Source of the DNA: Patescibacteria group bacterium
GTDB taxonomy: Bacteria > Patescibacteriota > Microgenomatia > Levybacterales > UBA12049
Assembly: GCA_038062115.1 (NCBI GenBank)
Contig: JBBTXS010000009.1
Location: 91,681-155,680 of the forward strand
Direction: 5' to 3'
DNA length: 64,000 nt
The notes beneath the pieces were generated by a model that saw only the letters and a program-made list of their open reading frames with translations, did not search any database and was not told the origin of the DNA. Below, one piece after another: positions 2,857 to 56,736 of the stretch; the first letter of the stretch is position 1, and every line of letters starts with the position of its first letter. The position numbers and the translations under genes were made by a program.

Positions 2857-2907
2857 ATAATGAAAATATAATAGCAGATTCATTCTTATTCTTCAATGGT
2901 AAATTTC

Positions 2908-3030
2908 GTAACTGTCCACGATTTGACAAAACATCTGCCATCTCGAGCCTAAGCGAGAGATCCCATGGGGATTTCTCACCTACTGCGTAGCTTCGAAATG
3001 ACAATCCTTTGGAAACTCGTGGACGGTTAC
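2908..3030. mobile_element. 123-bp MITE, GTAAC...GTTAC family, diverged copy, with 8-bp TSD
   Basis: TIRs are GTAACTGTCCACGATTTG / AAACTCGTGGACGGTTAC. Palindromic core is CATCTCGAGCCTAAGCGAGAGATCCC...CTTCGAAATGACA. Perfect 8-bp direct repeat TAAATTTC at 2900-2907 and 3031-3038. Confidence 0.85.
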
Positions 3031-3112
3031 TAAATTTCATGATAGACTTTATATTGTAGCTTCAGTTTTTTGATACTCCAGTTGGATAATAGAACCTGAT
3101 ATAATTTCTTTA

Positions 3113-5199: not shown

Positions 5200-5245
5200 A
5201 AAACAATTCTAGCAGAGGATACGTATTCAAGCAACATAGTTAATT

Positions 5246-5368
5246 GTAACTATTCAGTTCTTACCAATGAAGCTGTCATTTCGAGCGTAGCGAGAAATCC
5301 CCAGGGGATTCTCACGGCTACTTCGTAGCCTCAGAATGACATTCTGTTGGGAACAACTGAATACTTAC
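5246..5368. mobile_element. 123-bp MITE, GTAAC...CTTAC family, copy A, with 8-bp TSD
   Basis: Base-for-base identical to 11915-12037. TIRs are GTAACTATTCAGTTCTTACCAA / TTGGGAACAACTGAATACTTAC. TSD AGTTAATT at 5238-5245 and 5369-5376. Confidence 0.9.
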
Positions 5369-5428
5369 AGTTAATTAGCCTAAAGTAGGCTACTACGTAG
5401 TAACACACTTTAGAAACACGATAAACGC

Positions 5429-11906: not shown

Positions 11907-11914
11907 AAGACAAT

Positions 11915-12037
11915 GTAACTATTCAGTTCTTACCAATGAAGCTGTCATTTCGAGCGTAGCGAGAAATCCCCAGGGGATTCTCACGGCTACTTCGTAGCCT
12001 CAGAATGACATTCTGTTGGGAACAACTGAATACTTAC
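11915..12037. mobile_element. 123-bp MITE, GTAAC...CTTAC family, copy B, with 8-bp TSD
   Basis: Identical to 5246-5368. TSD AAGACAAT at 11907-11914 and 12038-12045. Confidence 0.9.
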
Positions 12038-12090
12038 AAGACAATAGGTTGCATGTAAAGCCAGCCTGATGTAGAATTGTTATTCATCCT

Positions 12091-14546: not shown

Positions 14547-15008
14547 TTATGAATTGTAACTTGTAGTTTTGAGTTTTGAGTTTTGAGTTTTGAGTTTTTC
14601 TTTATATGGGTGTTCGTCTTGAGCAAATACAAATAAGCGGCTCATCATTCTATCGCGCAATTTATTTTGCGGAAGCATACCGGAAACTGCATGGCGAATA
14701 ATTTCTTCTGGCTTTCTTTTTCTTAAATCACCTAAGGACTCTATTCTTAAGCCTCCTGGGTAACCCGAAGAACTATAATACTTTTTGAGAATTTCTTTTT
14801 TTCCAGTAACTTTTACGTCTTTTGCATTCACAACTATAACATAGTCGCCAACATCAAGGTTTCTCACAAAATATGGCTTTGATTTTCCCATCAAAATCAC
14901 TGCAATAGTTGATGCTATCCTTCCCAAAGTTTTTCCCTTAACATCCACTAGATGCCAAGATTGTTTTATCTTTGATGCTCTTGTTGGCGCTGTAAATTGA
15001 GCTTCCAT
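14547..15008 (-). CDS. rplM: 50S ribosomal protein L13
   Basis: WHLVDVKGKTLGRIAS...GMLPQNKL. The C-terminal tail is encoded by the GTTTTGAG octamer repeat. Confidence 0.95.
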   Translation of the reverse strand: MEAQFTAPTRASKIKQSWHLVDVKGKTLGRIASTIAVILMGKSKPYFVRNLDVGDYVIVVNAKDVKVTGKKEILKKYYSSSGYPGGLRIESLGDLRKRKPEEIIRHAVSGMLPQNKLRDRMMSRLFVFAQDEHPYKEKLKTQNSKLKTTSYNS

Positions 15009-15490: not shown

Positions 15491-15510
15491 AATAACAAAC
15501 AATCTCAAAT

Positions 15511-15620
15511 CGCAAAACGCAAATCGCAAAACTACAACTTAAATCTCAAATCTTTTAAGATTTACAGTTTTTAGATTTGAGATGTAGATTTGAGTTTTTA
15601 CATTTGAGATTTGAGATTAA
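15511..15620. repeat. Long imperfect palindrome built from AAATC(T/G)CA / TGAGATTT octamers, rpoA-rplQ intergenic
   Basis: Left half is AATCTCAAATCGCAAAACGCAAATCGCAAAAC...AAATCTCAAATC. Right half is GATTTGAGATGTAGATTTGAG...ATTTGAGATTTGAGATT. Confidence 0.8.
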
Positions 15621-18366: not shown

Positions 18367-19134
18367 TTATTGGGTCAAAATCATTGGCATATCTTTAGTA
18401 ATAGCAACTGTTCTTTCAAAAAGTCCAGAAAGACTTCCATCCTTTGTTTTAATTGTCCATCCATCATCGTTTGAGTAAACCACATCTGGTTTTCCCATGT
18501 TATAAATAACCTCAATTGCAATTACCATTTCCGCAAGAAGCTTGGGTGTATTTTCTACACTGCCAGCAAGAAAACCTGGAACCTCTGGCTCTTCATGCAG
18601 ACTCTTCCCAACCCCATGCCCTACAAGCGATCTAACCACAGAATATCCTTGTCCTTCTATAATTTTTTGGATATTCTTAGATATATGTCCTATCCTATTT
18701 CCAACTTTCGCAACATTGATCGCCTCCATCAAAGCCCTTTTCCCAGTTTCCAAAAACCTATAAACCTTATCTTCCTTTATCCTTAATCCTTTATCCTTAA
18801 TCCTTATTGTTTCCGCCATATCCGTATAGTAACCCTTGTAATACACTCCACAATCAATTCCAATAATATCTCCTTCTTTTAATTGGTATTTTGTTGGGAT
18901 GCCATGAACTACGACATCGTTAGTTGAGGTACATATTGCATGACAATATCCTTTAACTTTTTTAAATCCAGGCTCTGCTCCCTTTTCTTTTATCAACCTT
19001 TCCGCTAGGCTATCTAATTCAATCTCCGTAACGCCACTTTTTGCATGTTCCGAAACCTCAAACAAAACTTCTGCCAATATTTTTCCGCCTTGCCACATTA
19101 TCTCAATTTCTTTTTCGGTCTTTATGTCAATCAT
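18367..19134 (-). CDS. map: Methionine aminopeptidase type I
   Basis: VVHGIP, DIIGIDCG, GHGVGKSLHEEP and an EVIY-type pattern. Carries an in-frame CCTT(T)A(A)T repeat insertion (IKDKGLRIKEDK). Confidence 0.95.
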   Translation of the reverse strand: MIDIKTEKEIEIMWQGGKILAEVLFEVSEHAKSGVTEIELDSLAERLIKEKGAEPGFKKVKGYCHAICTSTNDVVVHGIPTKYQLKEGDIIGIDCGVYYKGYYTDMAETIRIKDKGLRIKEDKVYRFLETGKRALMEAINVAKVGNRIGHISKNIQKIIEGQGYSVVRSLVGHGVGKSLHEEPEVPGFLAGSVENTPKLLAEMVIAIEVIYNMGKPDVVYSNDDGWTIKTKDGSLSGLFERTVAITKDMPMILTQ

Positions 19135-28084: not shown

Positions 28085-28123
28085 ATCCTTAATTCTGAAT
28101 TCTAAATTCTGAATTCTGAATTT

Positions 28124-28424: not shown

Positions 28425-29144
28425 TTAAATATTCTCCATCTTTAAAAACGTCTCTTTCATTACATCTATTGAGGGTTTCATCAAAAGTATTAGCTTGTTA
28501 TCTAAAACTTCGTAAACGTTAAGAATATCTGCGTTTACAATATTTACTCCCTTAATGTTTCTCGAAGCTCTATAAACATTCTCAAATTCTTTTTTAGTTG
28601 AGGGCGTTACCAATAACACTTTCTTATCCTTATCCCTTATGCCCAAGTTTTTCATTGCCGAAACCATCAATTTAGTTTTTGGTTCTATTTTCTCAAAACC
28701 AGTTAAACCTTTTAATTGACCTTTCTTGAATTTGGAAGTTAGAGCAGAAAAAAGAGCCAATCTTTTCATTTTTTTAGAAAGTTTTAAGGAAAAATCTCTT
28801 GGTTTTGGACCAAAAACAATACCTCCACCAACAAAAATTGGAGCTTTTCTAGATCCATGCCTTGCGCGCCCTGTATGTTTTTGTGCCCAAATTTTTTTAG
28901 TCGAGCCACTAACTTCTCCCCTTGTTTTTGTAGAGGCAGTTCCCATTCTCTGATTTGCCAAATAAACCCTAACAGATTGAGCCATAAGTTGATTGTTAAC
29001 TTTTGCTCCAAAAATTTCTTTTGGTAATTCGATCTTCTCTGCAGCTTTACCTTGTATGTCAAAGCAATCAATAGTTAATCCGCTCGCTCTCTTAATCTTT
29101 GTTCGTAATTTTTGAGATTTGAGATTTGAGATTTTATTTACCAT
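28425..29144 (-). CDS. rplD: 50S ribosomal protein L4 (repeat-encoded N-terminal extension)
   Basis: GSTKKIWAQKHTGRARHGSRKAPIFVGGGIVFGP. The first ~20 aa (MVNKISNLKSQKLRTK) are encoded by the GAGATTTG octamer repeat. Confidence 0.93.
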   Translation of the reverse strand: MVNKISNLKSQKLRTKIKRASGLTIDCFDIQGKAAEKIELPKEIFGAKVNNQLMAQSVRVYLANQRMGTASTKTRGEVSGSTKKIWAQKHTGRARHGSRKAPIFVGGGIVFGPKPRDFSLKLSKKMKRLALFSALTSKFKKGQLKGLTGFEKIEPKTKLMVSAMKNLGIRDKDKKVLLVTPSTKKEFENVYRASRNIKGVNIVNADILNVYEVLDNKLILLMKPSIDVMKETFLKMENI

Positions 29145-35921: not shown

Positions 35922-36716
35922 CTAATAGTTCACTTTGTAGTATCGTCTCCATGGATGATTAAGAGACGGTTTCCAATTCAGTTTATGCGTTGTAAGAATT
36001 AATGGTTGTCTATTCATCTTCTTAGGCCTTTCTGGCAAAACTGTGTAATTGAGATATTTTTCTCTTAACGAGAAATGTATCGTTTCATCAAGCCATTCTT
36101 CAACAAGAACTTTGTCTTTTGCCCTAACAGTTGTCGGCTGAAGTTCCGTTAACTGATACCACTTGTTTTTAAACTGATACGAGTTTCGCAGTTCTAGTAG
36201 AATACCTATATGTCATTCCCGCGAAAGCGGGAATCTATACCAATAATTTATTTATATGGATTCCGTGTCAAGCACGGAATGACAAATGTGCGAAACTCGT
36301 GACTGAATAGTAAAGTCATTGTTTACTCGGCGTTTTGATTGCGCAGAAAAGATGCGGTGTATATTTTTTCTGTCAGTGTCTGAGAGTAATCTATGAATAT
36401 CGCCTTCTTTTGCGGGAATAACTGCAAATCTATTATTGAACTTTGGCAGAAAAACTTTTTCTAAAAACCTATTTCCCTCCTCAGGAGTATTTATGTTGGC
36501 AAGTCGCATTTCTTTCATCAGTCTATCCCGCAGGGTTTCAAACAATCGTTCTACTCTTCCTTTTGCTTCAGGGGAATGGGCAGTGATTAAAAGTATATCC
36601 AAATCTTTTGTTCCTCGTTTAAACTGCGTCATTAATTCATGATTATCTACGGCTGCTTTATAGTTAATCTTGTAAGTGGAATGGTATTTTATATTGGACG
36701 CATATAAAGAAGGCAA
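35922..36716 (-). pseudogene. Remnant of an rve/DDE-type transposase (C-terminal ~40%), interrupted by a MITE
   Basis: HSPEAKGRVERLFETLRDRLMKEMRL...FLPKFNNRFAV...DFTIQ | MITE | (Y)QFKNKWYQLTELQPTTVRAKDKVLVEEWLDETIHF...*. The N-terminal HTH and the first part of the catalytic core are absent. Confidence 0.75.
36179..36300. mobile_element. 122-bp MITE inserted in the transposase remnant
   Basis: 12-bp perfect TIR ACGAGTTTCGCA / TGCGAAACTCGT. Core is TGTCATTCCCGCGAAAGCGGGAAT...ATTCCGTGTCAAGCACGGAATGACA. Removing it rejoins the transposase reading frame. Confidence 0.85.
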
Positions 36717-45762: not shown

Positions 45763-45896
45763 AAAATGATAATACTAAAAAAAAAGCAGATTAACAATAG
45801 TTTGTTTCTACAACGCTCGTTGCGTATAGTATAATTCCCCTTAGGGGATTTCCCAGCAGGAGGCTAGCGGAGAGCGCAGCGAGGAGTTCACTAAGT

Positions 45897-46937
45897 ATGA
45901 AGTATAAACTTGTTGTTTGCGGAGGGACATTCGATCATTTTCATAAAGGGCATAGAGAATTTTTGCGATATGGGCTATCTATTAGCGATAAACTTCTTGT
46001 AGGGTTGACTACCGATGAATTCGTTAAGGCAAAAGATACGATTGGGCCAATTTACGATTACAAAACAAGAAAACAAGAGCTTGAAAATTTTTTTATTCAA
46101 GAGAAGGCAAGAAATAGAGTATCTATAGAACCAATTGGCAGTATTTATATACCAAAAATTTGGGAGCAGCTCTCAATAGAGGCAATTGTTGTATCAAAAA
46201 ATACAATTTCGGCTGCAAAGAAAATTAATTTAGTAAGAAAAGAGCAAAGAAAATATCCATTAATAATTAAGACTGTACAATTAGTTAAAAGCCAGCATAA
46301 TGAGTATATTTCTTCATCGAGTATAAGAAGTGGAGAAATTAATAGAGAAGGAAGACTAAATGTAAATCCCTATTGGTTAAATCACAGTTTGATTATTACA
46401 GAAGAATTGAAAAAAGAGTTTAAAAAGCCATTTGGGATACTCATTAAAGATAAAAAAGATTATGGTAATTTGATCTCCCCTTTTATTATAACAGTAGGGG
46501 ATATTACTACAAAAGTGTTTAACCAAATGGGTCAAAACCCTGATATTTCTGTTGTAGATTTTCGTGTTGCAAGGCATAAAGAGTTTTTTAGTCTTAAAGA
46601 TCTTGGTTTTTCGAAAGTGCAAGAAGTTATTAGGGTAAATAATCCACAAGGATATTTAACTTCTGATCTTTTCGAAGCAGTTTCTAATATATTTGGATCA
46701 CCGAAGAGTAGATGCCGCATAGTGCTTAAAATAGAAGGAGAAGAAGATCTTTCTGTATTGCCCTTAACACTTCGCGCTCCTCTTTCCTCAATAGTATTTT
46801 ACGGTCAACCAGGAGAAGGAGTTGTAAGGGTAGATATAACCGAAAGGAGCAAAGAAGTAGCCTATGGTCTTGCTAATCAATTCAAAATTGTCAATACCAA
46901 TTTCGACAGCCCATTAAAAAAAATATTGTACTTGTAA
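45897..46937 (+). CDS. Fusion protein: archaeal-type phosphopantetheine adenylyltransferase (cytidylyltransferase fold) + DUF359 (archaeal GTP-dependent dephospho-CoA kinase family)
   Basis: N-terminal domain: VVCGGTFDHFHKGH ... ISSSSIRSGE. C-terminal domain: ITVGDITT...DISVVDFRVARH...VNNPQGYLTSDL...IEGEEDLSVLPLTLRAPLSSIVFYGQPGEGVVRV, matching the VGD / NP.G / GEEDL / YGQP pattern recalled for DUF359. Confidence 0.7.
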   Translation: MKYKLVVCGGTFDHFHKGHREFLRYGLSISDKLLVGLTTDEFVKAKDTIGPIYDYKTRKQELENFFIQEKARNRVSIEPIGSIYIPKIWEQLSIEAIVVSKNTISAAKKINLVRKEQRKYPLIIKTVQLVKSQHNEYISSSSIRSGEINREGRLNVNPYWLNHSLIITEELKKEFKKPFGILIKDKKDYGNLISPFIITVGDITTKVFNQMGQNPDISVVDFRVARHKEFFSLKDLGFSKVQEVIRVNNPQGYLTSDLFEAVSNIFGSPKSRCRIVLKIEGEEDLSVLPLTLRAPLSSIVFYGQPGEGVVRVDITERSKEVAYGLANQFKIVNTNFDSPLKKILYL

Positions 46938-47057
46938 AAAAATTAAATATTGATTTATATGTTGATGATGATTTACAATTGCTTGAACACGTAAAAATTC
47001 TTTTGGCTAAACAAAAAGGTGCTCCCAACGTTCACCTCCGAGGTGAACCACGAAAGT

Positions 47058-49472
47058 ATGAATTTTTCTGATGTCATATTTGTTGCACAGTGGTGGGTAA
47101 TGTTTTTTATAATTGGTCTTATCTTTTTGCCAATTACTTGTTCTGTATTTTCTAAATTTTTTGATAAAGGTTATATTTTTTCAAAAATTATTGGAATTGT
47201 CTGTGTAAGTTATGTACTGTTTCTTCTGGGAGTTTTAAAACTTCTACCTTTCACCTTATTAACAATAGATGCGGTAATAATTGGTTTTTTTATTTTCAAT
47301 ATTTTCTTAATATCTAAACGTCCTAGTATCTTAACCTCCTTAAAAAACTCTTGGCGAATATTTCTTTTTGAGGAATTACTTTTTATACTAGCTCTTTTTT
47401 TCTGGTCTTTTATACGCGGTCATCAGCCAGACATTCATGGGTTAGAAAAATACATGGACTTTGGATTTATCAACTCAATAATTAGAAGCACACACTTTCC
47501 ACCACTTGATATGTGGTTTACTCCATATCCAATTAACTATTACTATTTTGGTCACTTAGTTACTGCTGTGTTAACAAAACTTAGCGTAATACCATCCTCT
47601 GTAACTTTTAATCTGATGCTAGCAACTATTTTTGGTTTTACATTTACCTGTGGTTTCTCAATAGGGCTCAATTTATTTTATAAATTCAGTCCGCCAGTTG
47701 GCGGATCAAAAATAGTCAGTGCTTCTGTGATTGCAGGCTTTTTAACTGGGATTTTACTATCCTTTGCCGGCAATCTTCATACTATCTACGCATTCTTTAA
47801 ACCTTACGTAAATGAAAACCCAGTTCCGTTCTGGCAACTAGCATTTTCTCCCAATTCTTCCCCAAACTCTTATTGGTATCCTAACGCAACTCGTTTTATC
47901 CATAATACAATCCATGAATTTCCTATTTATTCTTCTGTTGTTTCTGATCTACACGGACACTTCCTTGATGTTCCGTTTGTGCTGCTAACAATAGCTGTAC
48001 TTTTATCGTTAGTATTAAAATCACAAATCACAAATCACAAGCCACAAATAAATCCAAATATTCAAAATACTAAGCCTCTTGCAGTTTTGAATTTTGGTAA
48101 TTGGAATTTATTTAGGATTTGGAATTTAGGATTTGGAACTTTGTTGTTATTGGGATTCTTCTTAGCAATAATGTATATGACAAATGCGTGGGACGGACTC
48201 ATCTATTTTGGTCTGACCTCCTTAATTCTAGCGTGCTTGATAATTTTTCGACTTCAACATGCCAAACAGCCAAATACTACCAATAACCCAATACTACAAA
48301 TACTACCAATCAATAAAAAAATATTTAATAATTGGGTTATTGATTTGTTTATTGGGTTATTTGTTTATTTGTTTATTATTGGTATTACTTTCCTCATTCT
48401 TTCCCTTCCATTTAACCTCAATTTCAAACCGTTTGCTTCTGGTATCGGAGTTCTCTGTGCGCCAGAATTTATAACCAATATTGGTAAACTTGGTCCATTT
48501 TTATTCGAGAAAGATCACTGTCAGCATTCACCATGGTGGCAGCTTTTGATTCTATACGGTTTCTTTTACTTCTGGGTCGTATCATTTCTTGTCATGATCT
48601 TCAAAATCAAAAATCAATCCCCGATTCAATCGGGGACAAAAATTAAAAATGCAAATCAAAAATTAAAAAGTTTTAAAAATTTAAATTTCATTGAAAATTT
48701 AACTCCTTCTGATATTTTTGTACTTCTACTAATTGCTTTTTCTACTCTTCTTATCATTATTCCTGAATTTATTTATATTAAGGATATTTATCCTGGCCAC
48801 TATAGAGCAAATACAATGTTTAAACTTGTATACCAGTCTTTTATTATGCTCTCTATTGCTTCGGCTTACATAATAGTTAGAATAATGCCAATTATTCTAC
48901 GTCGCTTGAGGAACACCATACCTAATATTTTTAATTTTTCCTTTGTATATTTGCTATTTTCTATTTTATTTTTTATATTAGTAATGATTTATCCATACTT
49001 TGCCATAAATTCTTATTACAACAATCTAAAAGAGTACCTAAGTTTGGATGGCATAGAATATCTCAAGCCTCTTTACCCAACTGATTACCAAGCAATTTTG
49101 TGGATAAACAAAAATATTAAAGGACAGCCAGCAATCTTAGAAGCTCAAGGAGATTCCTATACAGACTATGGGAGAGTCTCCGCTAATACTGGACTCCCAA
49201 CAGTATTAGGCTGGGTGGTGCACGAATGGCTCTGGCGTGGAACATATGATATTCCGTCTCCTAGAATTAACGATGTAAAAGCACTATATGAAACCAAAGA
49301 CGTAAACGATGCTAAAGATCTTCTAAAAAAATATAATGTCTCCCTTGTGTTTATTGGAGAACTAGAAAAACAAAAATATCCAACACTTAATGAAGAAAAA
49401 TTTAAAACTCTAGGAAAACCCATCTATAAAAACGGGAATACAAAAATTTACAGGTTAAATAACACAAAATAA
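47058..49472 (+). CDS. DUF2298 ('chlor_Arch_YYY') polytopic membrane protein, GT-C-like
   Basis: RGHQPDIHGLEKYMDFGFINS...PINYYYFGH signature with many TM helices. Two in-frame repeat-derived inserts. Start set at MNFSDV (47058). Confidence 0.8.
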   Translation: MNFSDVIFVAQWWVMFFIIGLIFLPITCSVFSKFFDKGYIFSKIIGIVCVSYVLFLLGVLKLLPFTLLTIDAVIIGFFIFNIFLISKRPSILTSLKNSWRIFLFEELLFILALFFWSFIRGHQPDIHGLEKYMDFGFINSIIRSTHFPPLDMWFTPYPINYYYFGHLVTAVLTKLSVIPSSVTFNLMLATIFGFTFTCGFSIGLNLFYKFSPPVGGSKIVSASVIAGFLTGILLSFAGNLHTIYAFFKPYVNENPVPFWQLAFSPNSSPNSYWYPNATRFIHNTIHEFPIYSSVVSDLHGHFLDVPFVLLTIAVLLSLVLKSQITNHKPQINPNIQNTKPLAVLNFGNWNLFRIWNLGFGTLLLLGFFLAIMYMTNAWDGLIYFGLTSLILACLIIFRLQHAKQPNTTNNPILQILPINKKIFNNWVIDLFIGLFVYLFIIGITFLILSLPFNLNFKPFASGIGVLCAPEFITNIGKLGPFLFEKDHCQHSPWWQLLILYGFFYFWVVSFLVMIFKIKNQSPIQSGTKIKNANQKLKSFKNLNFIENLTPSDIFVLLLIAFSTLLIIIPEFIYIKDIYPGHYRANTMFKLVYQSFIMLSIASAYIIVRIMPIILRRLRNTIPNIFNFSFVYLLFSILFFILVMIYPYFAINSYYNNLKEYLSLDGIEYLKPLYPTDYQAILWINKNIKGQPAILEAQGDSYTDYGRVSANTGLPTVLGWVVHEWLWRGTYDIPSPRINDVKALYETKDVNDAKDLLKKYNVSLVFIGELEKQKYPTLNEEKFKTLGKPIYKNGNTKIYRLNNTK

Positions 49473-49556
49473 CTACAAAAAATTTATTTCTTTCTAAAGT
49501 ATTACGCTATGTAACATTGTACTTTGGTAAAAAACTTTTTGAAAAAAACCTAAACA

Positions 49557-50651
49557 CTATTTTGCGGAAAAAACTTTAGAGATCGGGCAGTTACCAGTTT
49601 TTATTTCGCAGTCTACATACTTTTGAATTTCCGAAAAATCTCCATTTCCCACCCTTGGAATTAAAACCCACTCATTATTATAGGTATACGATGTTTCTGG
49701 ATGCGTCAAAAGTCCTGGTCGGTTTTTTTGTTCATCCCCATAATCTAAAACTACATTTTGTATATTGGCATTCTTCATTTTTGTCGAAAGTCTTATAAAA
49801 TCGTCAAACTCATCTTCTTTAATATTCGTATCGATGCTATCTTTGACAACGGTATAAAGATTTACAATTTTTGCTGGATTAAGTAGAGTTTCCAAAGATA
49901 TAGCTTTATCTTTAATTGCTTTTATTAGTTCTCCTTGTCTTTTACTTCTTGCAAAATCTGTTCCCTCGTCGCCCGTAGCATGGCGGGAGCGTATAAATTC
50001 AAGAGCTTTCTCTCCATCCATATGCTGCAATCCTTTATCAAAATGAAGATGCAAATAGCGGCACGGAAATGCGTCTAGTTGGGATGAGGCAGTTGCAAGA
50101 GATTTTAGCTCTTCATCGCTATGACCGCAGGAATCATTTTCTTTTCCAGAAATTGGATACTGGTAATCGTCAAAGGCAGACGACACATACACGTCTACTC
50201 CTCCCAAAAGACTTATTGCTTTTTCAACTCCATCAAAGTCAATCCGCAAAACGTAGTCTATAGGTTGACCTACAATTTTTGAGACAAAAGATTTAGCCAT
50301 AGAAATTCCACCCTTAGCATAAACGGTATTTATTCTTCCTTTAATGTCCATCGTCCATAGATCTCTTGGGATAGAAACGAGTACTGCCTTTTCTTTATTA
50401 GAATCTATGCTTACAAAAATTATTGTATCTGTAAGATTAGGCCCTTCGTGCTTGCCCCCGCCTACCCCAAGCAATAATAGATTTATACGGCCATCTGTTT
50501 TTTTAAGCGTAATCTTTTGGTTGAAAAGAAGGCTAGATAAAGGAAAATATTTAGAAGATATCAATGAAAATAAAATTAATAAAAAAAATAGGGCTGCGAG
50601 AATAACACCAGTCTTTTTTTTACGCATTCTTAACAATCTCCAAAAACTCAA
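49557..50651 (-). CDS. LytR-CpsA-Psr (LCP) family cell-envelope glycopolymer ligase
   Basis: N-terminal TM, then NLLLLGVGG...LTDTIIFVSID...VSIPRDLW...INTVYA. Confidence 0.88.
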   Translation of the reverse strand: MSFWRLLRMRKKKTGVILAALFFLLILFSLISSKYFPLSSLLFNQKITLKKTDGRINLLLLGVGGGKHEGPNLTDTIIFVSIDSNKEKAVLVSIPRDLWTMDIKGRINTVYAKGGISMAKSFVSKIVGQPIDYVLRIDFDGVEKAISLLGGVDVYVSSAFDDYQYPISGKENDSCGHSDEELKSLATASSQLDAFPCRYLHLHFDKGLQHMDGEKALEFIRSRHATGDEGTDFARSKRQGELIKAIKDKAISLETLLNPAKIVNLYTVVKDSIDTNIKEDEFDDFIRLSTKMKNANIQNVVLDYGDEQKNRPGLLTHPETSYTYNNEWVLIPRVGNGDFSEIQKYVDCEIKTGNCPISKVFSAK

Positions 50652-51315
50652 GAGGATTAAGACTTGCTCCGCCTACTAACACGCCATCAATACTTGGCAT
50701 TTTGGTAAAGGAATTAACATTTAAAGATGTTACACTGCCTCCATACAAAACTGGAGTATCATTAACAATTTCTTTTATTTTCGCTGCCACACTTTCTGCA
50801 TTTTGAGGAGTGTCTGCTTGTCCTGAGCCAATCGCAAACAAAGGCTCATACGCTAGGATAATTCTATTGTCGTAACTTTGAATTTTGAACCTTGAACTTT
50901 GAACTTGATCAAGATTTGAGATGCACAATATTGGAATTAAACTATGTTTCATTGCCATCTCGATTTTTTTAGCAACCATATCATCGTCTTCTCCAAAATT
51001 TTTTCTTCTCTCTGAATGCCCAACAATTACATAATTGGCGAATTCCTTAATTTGTGCACCGTTAACCTCACCGGTATAAGCTCCCTTGTCAAATGGAGAA
51101 ATATCCTGAGCGGCAGATTCAACAGAAAGTTTTAGATTCCTCATGCAGTAGCGAGCGTGTTCGAGCGATACAAAAGAAGATGCAACGATGACCTTTTTTC
51201 CCCCAACCCTTGTTTTCCCACCTTTAACTCCATCGTCAAAATCATGAAGCCATTTTTCAGTTTCCTTAACAGTTTTATTCGATTTCCAGTTAGCAATAAT
51301 AAATAGCTTCTTCAT
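50620..51315 (-). CDS. tpiA: Triosephosphate isomerase
   Basis: FIIANWKSN, YVIVGHSERR, AYEPLFAIGSG and GGASL motifs. Start set at MKKLF (51315). Carries an in-frame TTGAAC(T/C)T repeat insert. Confidence 0.92.
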   Translation of the reverse strand: MKKLFIIANWKSNKTVKETEKWLHDFDDGVKGGKTRVGGKKVIVASSFVSLEHARYCMRNLKLSVESAAQDISPFDKGAYTGEVNGAQIKEFANYVIVGHSERRKNFGEDDDMVAKKIEMAMKHSLIPILCISNLDQVQSSRFKIQSYDNRIILAYEPLFAIGSGQADTPQNAESVAAKIKEIVNDTPVLYGGSVTSLNVNSFTKMPSIDGVLVGGASLNPLEFLEIVKNA

Positions 51316-51330
51316 GTGATACAATTGTAT

Positions 51331-51417
51331 TGTCATTGCGAGCGCAAGGCGAAGCAATCTCCACTCTTATTGAGATCGCCACGGGACGCACCGTCTGGTG
51401 CATCCCTCGCGATGACA
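51331..51417. repeat. Palindromic GTCATTGCGAGCG-type element upstream of pcrA
   Basis: TGTCATTGCGAGCGCAAGGCGAAGCAATC...GCATCCCTCGCGATGACA. It produces the false N-terminal extension in the ORF track. Confidence 0.8.
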
Positions 51418-51437
51418 CAGTTCACTTATTATACTCT

Positions 51438-53360
51438 ATGCAAAAAGAATTTCTCAAGGACTTAAATCTGGAGCAAAAAAAAGCGGTCCTACATAACCTG
51501 GGCCCAATGATAATTTTAGCAGGTGCTGGGTCTGGAAAAACAAGAGTGTTAACCTATAAAGTTATATATCTAATAAAACAAAAAGGTATAGATCCCCTAA
51601 ATATCCTTATGGTAACATTTACAAACAAGGCAGCGAACGAGATGAAAGAACGTGTGCAAAGATTTCTAGCTACCGACCAATCACCAATCACCAATCACCA
51701 ATCACCCACTATCTCCACTTTCCATTCTATTTGCGCCAAAATACTAAGGATTGATGGAAAATATATTGGTATTTCTTCTAGATTTGTTATTTATGATACG
51801 CAAGACCAGACAGATGCAACAAAAGAAGCTATGAAAAAACTTAGTATATCTGTTAAAGACTATAAACCAGTATCTATTTTAGCAACTATTTCTCAGGCAA
51901 AAAACGAGCTTATTTCAGACGCAGAGTATTCTAAATATGCAAGAGGACATTTTCAAGAGACTGTAGCAAAAGTTTATCCAGTTTATCAAGAAATTCTCAA
52001 AGCAAATTATGCACTTGATTTTGACGATTTATTGCTAAAAACAGTTTATCTTTTTGAACAAAATCCTCAGCTTCTTGAAAAGTATCAAAATCGCTTTCGT
52101 TATATTTTGATAGACGAATATCAAGATACAAACCATGCGCAGTATACACTTGCAAAAATGCTTTCAGATAAATTTAAAAATATTTGTGTCGTTGGAGACT
52201 TTTCTCAAAGTATTTATAGTTGGAGAGGAGCAGATTTTAGAAATCTAACAAAATTTAAAACTGATTTTAAAAATGTAGTAACTTTTGCGCTTTCTCAAAA
52301 TTATCGCTCAACCCAAAAAATTTTAGATGCAGCATCTTCTGTTATATCTAGAAATACTACCCATCCAGTGCTTAAACTTTGGACAGAAAATCCAAATGGA
52401 GAAGATGTTACCATTTATGAGGCAGGAAACGAGCATGAAGAAGTAGAATTTATCGTTAGTCAATTATCCAATTTGAAATATGAAATTACAAATTTAAAGT
52501 ATACAGATTTTGCCATTCTTTACAGAACCAATGCTCAATCTAGAATCATTGAAGAAGTTTTTATACATAGAGGTACCCCATATATTTTAATTGGAGGAAC
52601 AAGGTTTTACGAAAGAAAAGAAATAAAAGATGTATTAGCATATCTTAGAGTCTTAGCAAATTCAAAAGACATGGTTTCTTACAAACGGATTGAGAAATTA
52701 GGTAAAGGAAGGCTTGAAAAGTTTCTAGATTTTCAGAATAAAGTCATTCTGGGGATCCGCCAGCTGGCGGAGACTCCAGAATCTCCTGATACGAAAAGAC
52801 ATTCTGGACAAGCCAGAATGACGACTATTGATATTTTGGATCAAGTTCTTAAAAAAACAGAATATCTATCTTTATATAATGAGAAAAATGAAGAAGATAG
52901 AACAAGACTAGAAAATATTAAAGAACTGCGTTCTGTTGCTGTTTCGCTACCAAAACTTACGCAATTCTTAGAAAATGTTTCCCTTGTTGAACAAGAATAC
53001 CTGCCAGATAAACCTAATAATAACGGAAAAAAAGATGCAGTAACCTTAATGACCTTACATGCTGCTAAAGGACTCGAGTTTCCTATAGTTTTTATGATTG
53101 GCATGGAAGAAGGACTTTTTCCTCATAGCAGAAGCTTAATGGACAAGAACGAACTCGAAGAAGAAAGAAGACTCTGCTATGTAGGGATGACTAGAGCCAA
53201 AAGTCGACTTTTCCTAACATACACAAGACAACGACTTTTCTTTGGACAAAAAATGTCAAACACTGTCTCTAGATTTATTTTTGAGCTTCCAGAGAGCGTT
53301 CTTGCTAAAAATCTTAAGTCTATTAATAAACAGAAAAGCGAAATACCAGAATGGCTATGA
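51438..53360 (+). CDS. pcrA: ATP-dependent DNA helicase PcrA/UvrD family
   Basis: LNLEQKKAV...ILAGAGSGKTRVLT, ILIDEYQDTN, QNYRST and TLHAAKGLEFP motifs. Contains two in-frame repeat inserts. Confidence 0.93.
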   Translation: MQKEFLKDLNLEQKKAVLHNLGPMIILAGAGSGKTRVLTYKVIYLIKQKGIDPLNILMVTFTNKAANEMKERVQRFLATDQSPITNHQSPTISTFHSICAKILRIDGKYIGISSRFVIYDTQDQTDATKEAMKKLSISVKDYKPVSILATISQAKNELISDAEYSKYARGHFQETVAKVYPVYQEILKANYALDFDDLLLKTVYLFEQNPQLLEKYQNRFRYILIDEYQDTNHAQYTLAKMLSDKFKNICVVGDFSQSIYSWRGADFRNLTKFKTDFKNVVTFALSQNYRSTQKILDAASSVISRNTTHPVLKLWTENPNGEDVTIYEAGNEHEEVEFIVSQLSNLKYEITNLKYTDFAILYRTNAQSRIIEEVFIHRGTPYILIGGTRFYERKEIKDVLAYLRVLANSKDMVSYKRIEKLGKGRLEKFLDFQNKVILGIRQLAETPESPDTKRHSGQARMTTIDILDQVLKKTEYLSLYNEKNEEDRTRLENIKELRSVAVSLPKLTQFLENVSLVEQEYLPDKPNNNGKKDAVTLMTLHAAKGLEFPIVFMIGMEEGLFPHSRSLMDKNELEEERRLCYVGMTRAKSRLFLTYTRQRLFFGQKMSNTVSRFIFELPESVLAKNLKSINKQKSEIPEWL

Positions 53361-54451
53361 ATATAAATAGCGTTGCAACTCATCCCCTGCAATCTTTAAA
53401 CTGGGGAGAGTTTAGAAAAAAAACTGGGGTTAAAGTTGTTAGACAAAATGGATTACAAATAACAATTCACAAAATACCCCATTTTGCTTGGACAATTGGA
53501 TATTTTCCAAAAGGCACCATGCCAACAGAGGAAGTAATTCATGAGCTTGAAAAAATTGGTAAAAATGAAAGATGCATTTTTATTCAGATCGAACCGAATA
53601 TAGCTATTGCTCGTCATTCTGGGGAGGAGGAACGACGACTCCAGAATCTCTCTCGGATGCAACATGAGAACGTAAGAGATTCTGGACAAGCCAGAATGAC
53701 AGAATACGGACTTCGTCCCGCCGCTCATCCTCTCTTCACCAAATATACTTTTATTCTCGGGCTAACAAAATCAGAGGATGAACTACTGAAAAACATGCAT
53801 CCCAAAACTAGGTACAATATTAAAGTTGCTCAAAAACACGGCGTTAAGGTAATTGAAGATAACTCAGATGAAGCATTTGAAACATACTTAAGACTTACTA
53901 GGGAAACAACCAAAAGACAAGGCTTTTATGCACATACAGAAAATTACCATAGATTAATGTGGGAAACCCTCGGAATTCAGAATTCAGAATCTATAATTCA
54001 GAATTTCGATAGGAATAAATTGACAGCACATCTTTTTTTGGCAAAATATATACCTCCTTCGTCTAATTCTGAATTATTAATTATAAATTCTAAATTGCAA
54101 GCGCTAACGCTTGCCGCTTGGATTCTTTTTGTCTATAAAGATACACTTTATTATCCCTATGGAGCATCATCAAACCAGTATCGCGAAACTATGGCATCAA
54201 ATCTTATGATGTGGGAGGCAATAAAATTTGGAAAAAAATTAGGTCTTAAAAAATTCGATATGTGGGGAGCGCTGGGCCCAAATCCAGACACTAATGATCC
54301 GTGGTATGGTTTTCATAGATTTAAAGAAGGATATGGCGGAAAATTGGTTGAATTTGTTGGAAGTTACGATCTTGTTATAAATCCAATTTTATATCAACTA
54401 TATAAATTTGCAGATAAACTTCGCTGGTTGATCTTGAAACTTAAAAGCTAA
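53351..54451 (+). CDS. FemAB-family peptidoglycan interpeptide-bridge aminoacyltransferase
   Basis: NMHPKTRYNIKVAQKHGV...YPYGASSN.YRE.MASNLMMWEAIKFGKKLGLKKFDMWG. Contains three in-frame repeat-derived segments. Confidence 0.85.
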   Translation: MAMNINSVATHPLQSLNWGEFRKKTGVKVVRQNGLQITIHKIPHFAWTIGYFPKGTMPTEEVIHELEKIGKNERCIFIQIEPNIAIARHSGEEERRLQNLSRMQHENVRDSGQARMTEYGLRPAAHPLFTKYTFILGLTKSEDELLKNMHPKTRYNIKVAQKHGVKVIEDNSDEAFETYLRLTRETTKRQGFYAHTENYHRLMWETLGIQNSESIIQNFDRNKLTAHLFLAKYIPPSSNSELLIINSKLQALTLAAWILFVYKDTLYYPYGASSNQYRETMASNLMMWEAIKFGKKLGLKKFDMWGALGPNPDTNDPWYGFHRFKEGYGGKLVEFVGSYDLVINPILYQLYKFADKLRWLILKLKS

Positions 54452-54489
54452 GTGTGATAGTTCGAACTATCGAACTATAAAACACAAAA

Positions 54490-55014
54490 TTAGACTACAT
54501 ACAAACTAAGTTTATTTTTTTCATCGATCTTAGCTTCTGGCAAGGCAATATTATATTTATAGCTTACAATTCTTGTTTCTTTTTTTAATTCTTTTTTAAA
54601 CTTTGGCAAAAGACGATTTAGTGCTTTTGGGACAAGATAAACAAACACTACTGTTGCATCGGAAATATCTACGTCAAAAAAATTCTTTCTCTTAATCTGC
54701 ACTTTGTCCGAAAGTTTGTTACTATGTAGTAGCATACTTGAGATAAAGGACCGTAAAGGATCTATTTCTATCCCCACTCCTTTTGCCCCAAATTCTTTTG
54801 CGGCAACTACCAGAGCTGTTCCGTCTCCAGACCCCAAATCATAGACAATATCGTCTTTTCCAACCTTTGCCAATCGACACATTGCTCTGGCAATTTTTTT
54901 ATTCGTCCTCCACCACGGAGACCAAGGACTATCCGGCGGCCACACAGCAGAAAGGACAAGAAGCAAGGATACGATAATACCAAGAAGAATGCTATTAATC
55001 AACAAAAAGCTCAT
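54490..55014 (-). CDS. Membrane-anchored class I SAM-dependent methyltransferase
   Basis: N-terminal TM, then VYDLGSGDGTALVVAAKEFGAKGVGIEIDP. Confidence 0.8.
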   Translation of the reverse strand: MSFLLINSILLGIIVSLLLVLSAVWPPDSPWSPWWRTNKKIARAMCRLAKVGKDDIVYDLGSGDGTALVVAAKEFGAKGVGIEIDPLRSFISSMLLHSNKLSDKVQIKRKNFFDVDISDATVVFVYLVPKALNRLLPKFKKELKKETRIVSYKYNIALPEAKIDEKNKLSLYVV

Positions 55015-55037: not shown

Positions 55038-55088
55038 TGTAAGATTTCAGTCGAAATAATTGTAGTGTAATATCACTGAAATCTTACA
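55038..55088. repeat. 51-bp hairpin repeat R1 (14-bp perfect arms)
   Basis: TGTAAGATTTCAGT-cgaaataattgtagtgtaatatc-ACTGAAATCTTACA. Confidence 0.9.
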
Positions 55089-55361
55089 ATCGAAGCCCAT
55101 GCCCTAATACTCTCTGCCCTTGGCATAAGTCAGGCAGCCCAGTTTCTCAAAGACATGGAAGAAAGTAACACAGTGGTCATTCGGGTGCGGGCCGCTGATG
55201 AAGAACGGGCGAAACAGATTCTCTTTCAATACGACGACAAAGACTTTTCCTTTGCTGATGCGATCAGCTTTGCTGTCATAGAGCGACTGCGCATCTCCTA
55301 CGCCTTCACTTTTGACCACCACTTCACCCAGTACGGTCTAACCGTTCTTACCGCCAGTTAG
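55089..55361 (+). pseudogene. vapC: 5'-truncated PIN-domain (VapC-like) toxin gene
   Basis: The frame is open from directly after R1: IEAHALILSALGISQAAQFLKDMEESNTVVIRVRAADEERAKQILFQYDDKDFSFADAISFAVIERLRISYAFTFDHHFTQYGLTVL*. The first ~30 aa, including the first acidic residue, are missing. Visibly higher GC than the flanks. Confidence 0.65.
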
Positions 55362-55396
55362 GTGCGGCTCTACCCTACACCAGCCATCACATTTTG

Positions 55397-55661
55397 GATA
55401 GCGTACCAATTCTCGGTTGCTTTTTTGTTAAAACCTGTTTGAAAAGTAGTTGTTTTTCCTTCTCTGTCATTGCGAACCAGTCCGCAGACTGGTGTAGCAA
55501 TCTCCAAATGCATGAGATTGCTTCGTCTCCGTCATCTGACGGATCCTCGCAATGACAAATACTTCACCTTCTATCTTCTGTTAACAGAGGATACTTAAAC
55601 GATTGTCTCAATATGTCAATCTGAATACAAGGATTTAGCAACCGGAAAACAATACGCTATC
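55397..55661. mobile_element. 265-bp MITE with 8-bp TSD
   Basis: TIRs GATAGCGTA..GGTTGC / GCAACC..TACGCTATC. Internal core TGTCATTGCGAACCAGTCCGCAGACTGGTGTAGCAATC...GATCCTCGCAATGACA. TSD ACATTTTG at 55389-55396 and 55662-55669. Confidence 0.85.
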
Positions 55662-55719
55662 ACATTTTGCCACTTGACAATAAATCGTATATCTATTCTA
55701 TAATCGAGTAAGTACCCCC

Positions 55720-55867
55720 TGTAAGATTTCAGTCAAAATAGAGGAAAATTTGCAATGCCTGGGGGTTGAAAGTATATATAGTTTACCTTGCAAATACAGT
55801 CTAAAACAGAAATTAGCTGATTTATCATCTATTGCAAATTGTAGTATAATATCACTGAAATCTTACA
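55720..55867. repeat. 148-bp hairpin repeat R2 (same arms as R1, expanded loop containing a copy of the sodX 3' end)
   Basis: Left arm 55720-55733 and right arm 55854-55867. 55720-55787 is nearly identical to 56392-56460. The loop end AATTGTAGTATAATATC matches the R1 loop end. Confidence 0.9.
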
Positions 55868-55888
55868 GTCGGAGAAGGGAGCACTGTT

Positions 55889-56332
55889 ATGGGTTCGTCA
55901 AAGATAAGTTTCGCAGTAGTCACAGCAGTTTTCTTGGCAGTGGCGGGTGTTTTGGCGGTCTTTGAGGTGTTTGCTAACAGCGTGTCAGCCGCACCCAAGA
56001 TCACAGACCCGCTAGTTGTGAAAGCGTGCATGCGGGCTAACGGCAATATTCGGGTGACCATGACTTGGCATGACCTGGAAGGCGGAGTAGGAGCGGTGAC
56101 TGGGATTGCGAGCTATTATGCAGGTGCTCGAACTGCTTCACTAGCCTACACGCAGTTCCGCTACCAGACTAGTCCCTACCCTTTGTCTGGGCGGCAGGTC
56201 ATGGAATTTGCGCCGGCTCCGAACGTTCCGAGTCCAAATGACGGCCCCGTAAATCAGGTCTTTTACATCTTCGGCACTACACCTCCCTCAGTCGACTTCA
56301 GTGGCAGCATCACGGACTTCCGGAAATGCTAG
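55889..56332 (+). CDS. Secreted hypothetical protein (signal peptide, two Cys), GC-rich cargo gene
   Basis: MGSSKISFAVVTAVFLAVAGVLAVFEVFANSVSA|APK... SD-like AAGGGAG lies 8-9 nt upstream. Codon and GC usage are clearly unlike the neighbours. Confidence 0.65.
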   Translation: MGSSKISFAVVTAVFLAVAGVLAVFEVFANSVSAAPKITDPLVVKACMRANGNIRVTMTWHDLEGGVGAVTGIASYYAGARTASLAYTQFRYQTSPYPLSGRQVMEFAPAPNVPSPNDGPVNQVFYIFGTTPPSVDFSGSITDFRKC

Positions 56333-56391
56333 TGGGTCACTTGTCACGGATATAGCCTTTTCTCCAAGCTGTTAACTGTCATGAGCATGAC

Positions 56392-56436
56392 TGTAAGATT
56401 TCAGTCAAAATAGAGGAAAATTTGCAATGCCTGGGG
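56392..56436. repeat. Solo left arm R3 + shared 31-nt segment abutting sodX stop
   Basis: TGTAAGATTTCAGTCAAAATAGAGGAAAATTTGCAATGCCTGGGG, identical to 55720-55764. Confidence 0.9.
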
Positions 56437-56736
56437 TTAGAAAGTATATATCACTTTACCGATAATATCGTTTTTTGAGATCCAGCCAAACCTCTTACTA
56501 TCCATACTATCTTTTTCGTTGTCTCCTTTTACGAAATATTTTTTTCCGTCATCTGACTGATCAATTTTGGTAATTCTTTTCATAAGCACTCTCTCATTTT
56601 TTCTAAAAACCACAATATCACCCATTTTTGGTTTTGAGAAAAAATAGGGAAGGCTGCTTGCTAAAACACTTTGTCCATTTTTAATAGTAGGTTCCATGCT
56701 GTGGCCTTCGATCTTGAAAAGTGAAAAAAGAAGCAT
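56437..56736 (-). CDS. sodX: S26-family signal-peptidase-like NiSOD maturation protease
   Basis: GHSMEPTIKNG (catalytic Ser), VLMKRI (Lys) and GDNEKDSMDSR. Immediately downstream of sodN. Confidence 0.8.
   Translation of the reverse strand: MLLFSLFKIEGHSMEPTIKNGQSVLASSLPYFFSKPKMGDIVVFRKNERVLMKRITKIDQSDDGKKYFVKGDNEKDSMDSKRFGWISKNDIIGKVIYTF

Follow-up and report, generated by a model that had tools for sequence, protein, structure and literature searches.

The closest described relatives of the elements reported here are the CGTC-tagged repetitive extragenic palindromes (REPs), defined by an unpaired CGTC or TGTC tag (variant CCTC) and a stem of 8–9 bp (Di Nocera, De Gregorio & Rocco 2013, BMC Genomics 14:522, PMC3733652). 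Their stems start almost invariably with A-T pairs, the loop has 4–5 nt and the 3-nt tail has the consensus CCA; head-to-head dimers, with the tags outside, predominate, the repeats occur mostly in alphaproteobacteria, and neither a dedicated transposase nor a REP-associated tyrosine transposase (RAYT) is known for them (PMC3733652). The same survey equated CGTC-1 and CGTC-4 of Rickettsia conorii with the Rickettsia palindromic elements (RPEs) RPE-6 and RPE-4, and CGTC-1 of Neisseria with dRS3, and reported that intragenic dimers encode 20–30 aa and are over-represented in genes for replication and repair, UvrD/Rep helicases among them. For RPE-4/6/7, whose signature is ATGAC, different groups were found at one site of orthologous Rickettsia genes (UvrC, an ATP-dependent DNA helicase and PBP1C), and the choice between a 'hot spot' and a 'common origin' was left undecided (Matsutani 2013, PMC3767692). 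In-frame copies in UvrD-type helicases and different families at one orthologous site are therefore already published for the CGTC superfamily. Here we describe two segments, one in a pcrA/uvrD-type helicase gene and one in the adjacent FemAB-family gene (fem), within a 64-kb stretch of a Patescibacteria contig (the window; positions are counted along it). We consider it highly probable that both are head-to-head dimers of CGTC-tagged REP hairpins, carried in frame in variable linkers as selfish or near-neutral passengers. What is new is the Candidate Phyla Radiation (CPR)/Levybacteria lineage, the repeated use of the same two loops across many Levybacteria lineages, a conservation of the elements far above that of saturated synonymous sites, and a 22-nt hairpin shared by distant phyla. 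The preliminary description, made from the letters of the window, knew of no formal account for this lineage, and we likewise found no description of such repeats in CPR/Patescibacteria in the searchable literature.

The two strings quoted in that description were found exactly at 52743–52822 (the pcrA element, plus strand, 80 nt) and 53613–53700 (the fem element, plus strand, 88 nt). The left unit of the pcrA element (52743–52785, plus strand) consists of an (A)GTC tag, the stem ATTCTGGGG/CTCCAGAAT, a 19-nt loop and the tail CTC, with a nested palindrome, CCGCCAGCTGGCGG (52757–52770), inside the loop; its right unit (52801–52822, minus strand) has the stem ATTCTGG/CCAGAAT, the loop ACAAG and the tag GAC(G). 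The left unit of the fem element (53613–53650, plus strand; tag CGTC, 14-nt loop, tail CTC) is separated by a spacer (53651–53678) from a right unit (53679–53700) with the tag TGTC on the minus strand. Both left stems are 9 bp with 1 mismatch, both right stems 7 bp, and the right units of the two elements are identical. Alignment of the elements yields three identical blocks, GTCATTCTGGGGA (13 nt), GACTCCAGAATCTC (14 nt) and ATTCTGGACAAGCCAGAATGAC (22 nt). Allowing at most 1 mismatch, the 10-mer GTCATTCTGG occurs 11 times in the window compared to 2.65 expected, a number reached in 0 of 100 shuffles, and its 4 exact matches are all termini of the pcrA and fem elements. Folded as DNA, the pcrA and fem elements reach −20.3 and −17.7 kcal/mol (z −5.4 and −3.5 against shuffled controls); folded as RNA, −37.4 and −36.2 kcal/mol (z −5.7 and −4.6). 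Since the core ATTCTGG/CCAGAAT is common to all four arms, two topologies compete, one with two hairpins side by side and one in which outer arm pairs with outer arm and inner with inner.

A unit consensus was built from 14 units of the window and other loci. The first two stem positions do not vary (A-T, then T-A, in 14/14), while positions 3 and 5–8 covary through several Watson-Crick pair types. The tag is TGTC in nine units, CGTC in four and AGTC in one; the left and right tags are CGTC and TGTC in the fem element, AGTC and CGTC in the pcrA element, and orthologous copies at the PcrA site mostly read CGTC...GACG. The commonest loop is CTTGT, which the right units carry as the 5-nt ACAAG of the other strand; left loops are 14 and 19 nt here and 10–32 nt in relatives, so that one half of every dimer deviates from the published loop length. 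The commonest tail is CCA. Tags lie outside in both elements and in every dimer of the window and of the PcrA-site loci L202–L207. The window elements thus share with the published CGTC-tagged REPs the tag, the A-T/T-A start of the stem, the 4–5 nt loop of the short unit, the 3-nt tail, the head-to-head arrangement, the lack of a transposase and a host range that includes UvrD/Rep helicases and UvrC. They differ from them in the 7-bp right stem, the enlarged left loop (often with a nested palindrome), the CTC tail and the CPR/Levybacteria host.

An analogy with the Rickettsia elements had been drawn at the outset, and it proves closer than analogy: because the elements largely fit the CGTC-tagged REP definition, which takes in RPE-4 and RPE-6, the likeness is one of superfamily, and their termini, GTCAT and ATGAC, are those of the RPE-4/6/7 palindromes. 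Like RPE-4/-6/-7 (Ogata 2000, 2002; Matsutani 2013), the window elements lie in frame in housekeeping genes, in solvent-exposed regions. Unlike them, their host belongs to another phylum and is free-living or episymbiotic rather than obligately intracellular; the likeness consists in the signature and the habit of insertion, and with a Levybacteria host these are no RPEs by name. RPE-1/2/3 are longer (~100–150 bp) and unrelated. The dRS3 repeats of Neisseria lie between genes, where prophages and IS110-type elements use them for integration, and their core, ATTCCC-N8-GGGAAT, is what we take the window element at 36212 (ATTCCCGCGAAAGCGGGAAT) to contain. The dRS3/NIME (neisserial intergenic mosaic element) repeats belong to the same superfamily (PMC3733652), and their prophage/IS110-type association was not seen for the window elements. 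RAYT-mobilised GTAG REPs and their doublets (REPINs) are also inverted pairs of small hairpins without target duplication and with a presumed single-strand hairpin intermediate; a GTAG REPIN is ruled out by the (C/T)GTC tag, and no RAYT/Y1 transposase occurs in the window. [quoted passage not shown] Around 12 dimers with the CTGG core of the pcrA and fem elements (the CTGG family), the flank pairs contained neither a target-site duplication, which rules out a DDE-type MITE, nor a conserved target motif. No transposase was found in the 64-kb window, where the 30 ORFs scanned belong to housekeeping Pfam families or had no match.

The pcrA gene (51435–53360, plus strand) encodes 640 aa from the conserved start MQKEFLKDL, with the Pfam domains UvrD-helicase and UvrD_C, and its product matches the Geobacillus PcrA structure 1PJR with an E-value of 2.9e-164; its relatives are named Candidatus Levybacteria. 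The fem gene (53351–54451, plus strand), for a FemX-like lipid II aminoacyl-transferase, overlaps the pcrA stop by 10 nt; its product carries PF02388 and PF13480, is named FemA/FemB family by NCBI and matches the S. aureus FemX structure 6SNR with an E-value of 1.9e-22. As reference for the ratio of nonsynonymous to synonymous substitution (dN/dS) we used L001, the closest syntenic relative, in which the gene order is the same as in the window. The ratios are 0.117 for pcrA and 0.123 for fem, and the helicase motifs AGAGSGKT, DEYQDTN, QNYRS and YVGMTRA are intact in the PcrA translation. Both genes thus appear functional and under purifying selection, and the possibility that they are pseudogenes, raised in advance as one that would undo the proposal, is ruled out by these values. 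By analogy with other bacteria, both are probably essential.

Both elements are read through without stops, as first described, within the ORFs 51330(51435)–53360 and 53351–54451. The translated inserts comprise the element and the outer base(s) of the tag: VILGIRQLAETPESPDTKRHSGQARMT in PcrA (27 aa, 81 nt, codons 52743–52823) and RHSGEEERRLQNLSRMQHENVRDSGQARMT in Fem (30 aa, 90 nt, codons 53612–53701). A shared peptide of the type ILG...SGQARMT had been proposed; its right end, SGQARMT, is present in both, while ILG is limited to PcrA because the two genes do not use the same frame for the left end (giving VILG in pcrA and RHSGE in fem). The six intact elements at the PcrA site are 80, 56, 107, 77, 56 and 95 nt long, all 2 modulo 3, and the three copies at the Fem site 88, 55 and 58 nt, all 1 modulo 3; the sample was gathered by protein search, so that ascertainment has to be kept in mind. 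A length modulo 3 that is constant for each site points to selection on the reading frame, which argues that the elements are translated. Compact CTGG dimers are free of stops in four of six frames, the two window copies in three of six, and the intergenic families of the window in one to three. The segments would then form disordered extra loops of 27 and 30 residues, for which the predicted junction peptides include QLAETPESPDTK, MTTIDILDQVLK and DSGQAR.

Alignment with orthologues bore out the suggestion that the segments are lineage-specific insertions, since both enter linkers of variable length; together with the element-free L001, this rules out ancestral conserved sequence. Some 106 of 120 Levybacteria PcrA orthologues have a short variable linker in place of the element. 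L001 lacks both elements, its PcrA reading QNTDLDNKTTIDIL at the site and its fem gene carrying an (AATTTCG)n array instead. No remnants of the ATGAC motif were found in the empty linkers. A position in surface loops had also been anticipated, and the models agree with it, the inserts being predicted as low-confidence coil between conserved secondary-structure elements. In the AlphaFold model, the PcrA insert corresponds to residues ~436–462, in a coil between helices 423–441 and 463–474, and residues 438–459 have a predicted local distance difference test score (pLDDT) below 50. Aligned to 1PJR, it falls in an unaligned gap from residue 419 to 478, which we take to be the start of the PcrA 2B subdomain. 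The Fem insert (residues ~86–115 of its model, with 84–92 and 101–108 at pLDDT below 50) lies between strands 73–77 and 128–133, in the N-terminal domain of the FemX-like transferase.

The same two loops are occupied repeatedly. In a neighbour-joining tree of 120 PcrA proteins, made with the insert masked, element-bearing proteins fall into at least 9–10 separate lineages, each with element-free sisters, and the element always stands after FQxx(V), in constant frame and orientation. Among the PcrA-site loci compared as DNA, L202 and L206 carry compact 56-nt dimers, and the window, L205 and L207 carry long-loop variants; in the L204 copy the termini are eroded and the nested palindrome is intact. 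L202 has a CTGG dimer within its PcrA gene, further ones at two sites of Fem, and a partial copy in a DUF2298 gene. The Fem site, 3–5 codons after EPN, is hypervariable in nearly all of 120 orthologues: about seven carry the CTGG family and about ten other CGTC families (CCCGAA/GCTGAA and CCCGTG were seen beside CTGG), the latter with peptides such as CHPELVSGS...MLKQVQHD, VIPVKTGIQ and VILSEAKN, and many further orthologues have peptides derived from period-7 arrays. Related elements occur at the same PcrA and Fem sites in independent metagenomes. Separately, in L203 (3150–3200) the PcrA-site element is itself broken by a second, unrelated palindrome, CCCTCACCC...GGGTGAGGG, a nested in-frame insertion with the peptide PHPNPLPKGEG.

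We also compared the conservation of the elements with that of their host genes. Between the window and L202–L207 the identity at fourfold-degenerate sites is 0.21–0.46, against a random expectation of 0.32, so that synonymous sites are saturated. The alignable parts of the elements are nevertheless 83–100% identical, suggesting that the copies are recent or re-homogenised, or else constrained at the nucleotide level. The nested palindrome, CCGCCAGCTGGCGG in the window, reads CCGTCAGCTGACGG in L204, with a compensatory change from C:G to T:A at the cost of Ala to Thr; the same change is present in L203. Compared with L001, the region 45815–55000 of the window is a mosaic of blocks with 92–97% and 57–80% nucleotide identity. 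Identity is 90–100% up to ~52,680 and then ~70–80% in the remainder of pcrA, in fem and in the gene after it, which places a breakpoint ~60–80 nt upstream of the pcrA element; in the C-terminal part of PcrA the L001 protein no longer stands out as the nearest relative. One exchanged tract contains both elements, and the filled/empty difference between the window and L001 is therefore coupled to the exchange of that tract and is no clean insertion. Such mosaicism implies frequent homologous recombination among Levybacteria. As a side observation, four of four mosaic breakpoints lie within ~100 nt of a repeat (a heptamer array or the pcrA element); the repeat density is ~1 per 430 nt, and we do not claim this closeness to be significant.

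We propose that the elements are selfish or near-neutral passengers which would survive in coding DNA only in a few permissive loops. Their copies would be recent, or continually re-homogenised from the genomic pool, and would probably move through a single-strand hairpin intermediate, by means of a Y1/HUH-type or other REP-recognising recombinase. They may also cross from one Levybacteria lineage to another when segments of the host genes recombine homologously, and the recurrent occupancy of the loops would reflect permissive sites together with re-use or conversion of resident copies.

Several observations weigh against this proposal. We saw no transposition event, no donor copy and no empty site whose background was otherwise identical, and the element-free L001 differs from the window by a whole recombination tract. 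That the segments are translated is suggested by the statistics of frame and stops only, and the orthologues behind these came from a protein search, with its ascertainment bias. Of the 8–9 CGTC-type dimers in the window, only two have the CTGG core. Moreover, the intragenic head-to-head dimers (pcrA, fem, Ham1 and AHSA1) all have the same orientation relative to the gene, and a subfamily with a CAGCTG loop recurs at the PcrA site in three non-sister lineages, neither of which a random-insertion model alone would predict.

How the loops came to be occupied could be explained by two histories. It is quite plausible that each site received a single ancient insertion, which was then inherited vertically and by recombination, repeatedly lost or eroded, and kept close to its family by gene conversion from other genomic copies, a process that could also swap the repeat family at a site. 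The constancy of site, orientation and frame across lineages is consistent with this history, as are the decayed L204 copy, with its degenerate termini and intact nested palindrome, and the mosaic breakpoint adjoining the pcrA element; an equivalent alternative has been proposed for RPE-4/6/7 (PMC3767692). We note however that it demands over 20 exact in-frame losses across the PcrA tree, that no gene-conversion donor was identified and that the empty linkers lack ATGAC remnants. Possible, but more doubtful, is recurrent site-directed insertion, in which several stem families would have entered the same nucleotide window of pcrA or fem in independent Levybacteria lineages. This would account for the many element-bearing PcrA lineages with element-free sisters, for the different families in Fem 3–5 codons after EPN and for elements that are near-identical although synonymous sites are saturated. 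In addition, the linker TDLDNKT is common to the PcrA proteins P0002 and P0020/22, which suggests that the empty state is ancestral to the lineages of P0001 (the window protein) and P0005. Yet the flanks carry no conserved target motif or duplication, the gene tree is confounded by recombination, a uniform orientation in every lineage is simpler under a single origin, and selection for a few permissive loops can mimic targeting.

It is unlikely that the hairpin, as DNA or RNA, or the inserted peptide has acquired a selected function in the host genes, for example by pausing translation, affecting mRNA stability, modulating PcrA's regulatory 2B domain or diversifying protein loops. In favour of such exaptation, palindromy has been retained by compensatory change at the cost of Ala to Thr, nucleotide conservation is far above neutral, the same loops are occupied recurrently, and PcrA and UvrC echo the enrichment published for intragenic REPs among repair genes (PMC3733652). 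However, most orthologues, including those of the closest relative L001, do without the element, the peptides differ by frame between pcrA and fem and are predicted to be disordered, and the elements are mostly intergenic. A selected role for hairpin or peptide is thus possible, and is not required.

That the segments are not translated at all, being excised from the mRNA in the manner of an intron or skipped by the ribosome, is very improbable: a stable RNA structure (−36 to −37 kcal/mol) would suit it, but the copies at each site all keep the frame and lack stops despite variable loop lengths, no conserved splice-like boundaries are present, and no Rfam family, including intron and ribozyme families, matches the elements, so that intron, intein and bypass alike are ruled out. 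An assembly chimera, or pseudogenes gathering junk, has next to no probability, since, although the source is a metagenome-assembled genome (MAG), a PcrA 100% identical to that of the window (P0001) is on record as a Patescibacteria MAG protein on 4 contigs (NCBI, ENA), related elements occupy the same sites in independent metagenomes and the genes are intact. Artefact, pseudogene and RNA-level removal are effectively excluded.

The two-hairpin plan ascribed to the pcrA and fem elements indeed recurs in six intergenic GTCATT...AATGAC elements whose stem cores are different, all in the window, and the elements are non-coding repeats that lie mostly between genes within the window. The CGTC-type dimers are found at 2771–2841 (GTCATTCCGAGC...GCTCGAAATGAC), at 5275–5340 with a 100% identical second copy at 11944–12009, at 36212–36283, at 51332–51416 (GTCATTGCGAGC...CGCGATGAC, of another stem family, between the divergent tpiA and pcrA genes) and at 55466–55556 (GTCATTGCGAAC...CTCGCAATGAC, downstream of a methyltransferase gene). 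The element at 36212–36283 is a canonical heterodimer, its left half TGTC-ATTCCCGC-GAAA-GCGGGAAT-CTA and its right half TGG-ATTCCGTG-TCAAG-CACGGAAT-GACA. The copies at 5275 and 11944 are part of a 125-nt repeat (5245–5369 and 11914–12038, 100% identical and 6.7 kb apart, and at 62% also 2907–3031), which consists of a CGTC-type dimer and ~60 nt of flank and follows the MetRS gene and a DnaJ-domain gene. The dimer at 51332–51416 is open in the pcrA frame and lies upstream of the conserved pcrA start; the mechanical pcrA ORF traverses it and is called 35 codons early (51330–51434, MSLRAQGEAISTLIEIATGR...), and the tpiA ORF has a comparable false N-terminal extension, MLRLALAMT. Further along, at 55058–56451, the ORF 55889–56332 (147 aa, no Pfam match) is enclosed by direct repeats, of 61 nt (97%) and of 38 nt (92%), which also have inverted copies. 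L202 has no such ORF between its methyltransferase gene and its signal-peptidase gene, and a small cassette may have been inserted here.

Period-7 arrays are abundant both between genes (14565–14598, 15501–15618, 18773–18806, 28091–28122 and 29111–29134) and within ORFs, where three units make seven codons: 51676–51706 in pcrA, 50874–50906 in tpiA, 48018–48049 and 48110–48138 in the DUF2298 gene, and 53973–54005 in fem, with an inverted partner at 54065–54101. They presumably resemble the heptamers of cyanobacterial short tandemly repeated repetitive (STRR) sequences, and we found no literature description of such arrays for CPR. Fem orthologues have two more hypervariable sites, on either side of the conserved NKLTAHLxLAKY strand, which hold heptamer-derived peptides (KSQKSKVKSQK, RIQNSKFKIQNS) or CGTC dimers. 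In L206 (4684–5680) the Fem gene is split into two ORFs by a frameshift within an (AGAAGTC)n heptamer array; an error of assembly, a pseudogene and phase variation are the candidate explanations.

Beyond Levybacteria, the hairpin ATTCTGG-N5/6-CCAGAATGAC is found in Nitrospirota, Thermodesulfovibrionales, Gammaproteobacteria, Acidobacteriota, Chloroflexota and several CPR phyla, usually as second unit after a first unit GTCATTCC(C/A)GC. Scanning genome contigs with a 17-base gapped pattern, for which ~2,000 chance matches are expected, gave at least 120 loci; the sharp peak of gap length at 5–6 nt argues that the distributed hairpin matches are not due to chance. In Nitrospirota-type genomes (L028, of the Thermodesulfovibrionales, and L004, L077, L079, L109, L118 and L121), heterodimers combine a first half GTCATTCCCGCTTGTCGGGAATC with ATTCTGGACAAGCCAGAATGAC as the second, and the 22-nt identity across phyla is exact. 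Only 3 matches to the 22-mer were found in viral contigs, so phages do not appear to be an obvious vector.

Other bona fide proteins carry the CTGG-type family in frame as well: the arginyl-tRNA synthetase (ArgRS) of a different Levybacteria genome, UvrC, where three single units occur, a radical-SAM enzyme resembling MiaB, a glycosyltransferase of the GT2 family, and one protein each of the Ham1 and AHSA1-domain types. In L029, the tags of the ArgRS copy lie inside. A Thermodesulfovibrionales ORF with an in-frame element was recognised as a restriction-modification methylase by eye only, outside the Pfam check. A synthetic six-frame peptide query matched only 2 proteins, and a search of representatives with the pcrA insert returned only eukaryotic Ki-67-like repeat proteins, which we regard as a chance resemblance. 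In a scan of metagenome contigs with the PcrA alignment, keyed on DEYQDTN, the relatives all had at most 58% identity.

With these findings, the protein-invading palindromic repeats known from Rickettsia and other proteobacteria are seen to reach the Candidate Phyla Radiation too. CGTC repeats are common to Rickettsia, Neisseria and Nitrospirota, and an identical 22-nt hairpin unit reaches Nitrospirota, Gammaproteobacteria and Patescibacteria. In CPR genomes the repeats inflate and distort protein alignments, mislead gene callers by creating false N-terminal extensions, as in the pcrA ORF, and account for recurrent peptides such as DSGQARMT in many metagenomic proteins. A bolder reading, which we hold to be speculative and rather improbable, is that in CPR both CGTC dimers and period-7 arrays are actively and repeatedly written into a few protein loops by site- and orientation-specific copying or conversion. 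If so, the targeted loops would become hypervariable, and since CPR genomes are only ~1 Mb, the missing mobiliser of CGTC repeats could be found by phyletic profiling. A transposase has never been linked to CGTC repeats, and the tiny CPR genomes, with many conserved copies, are a good place to search for one.

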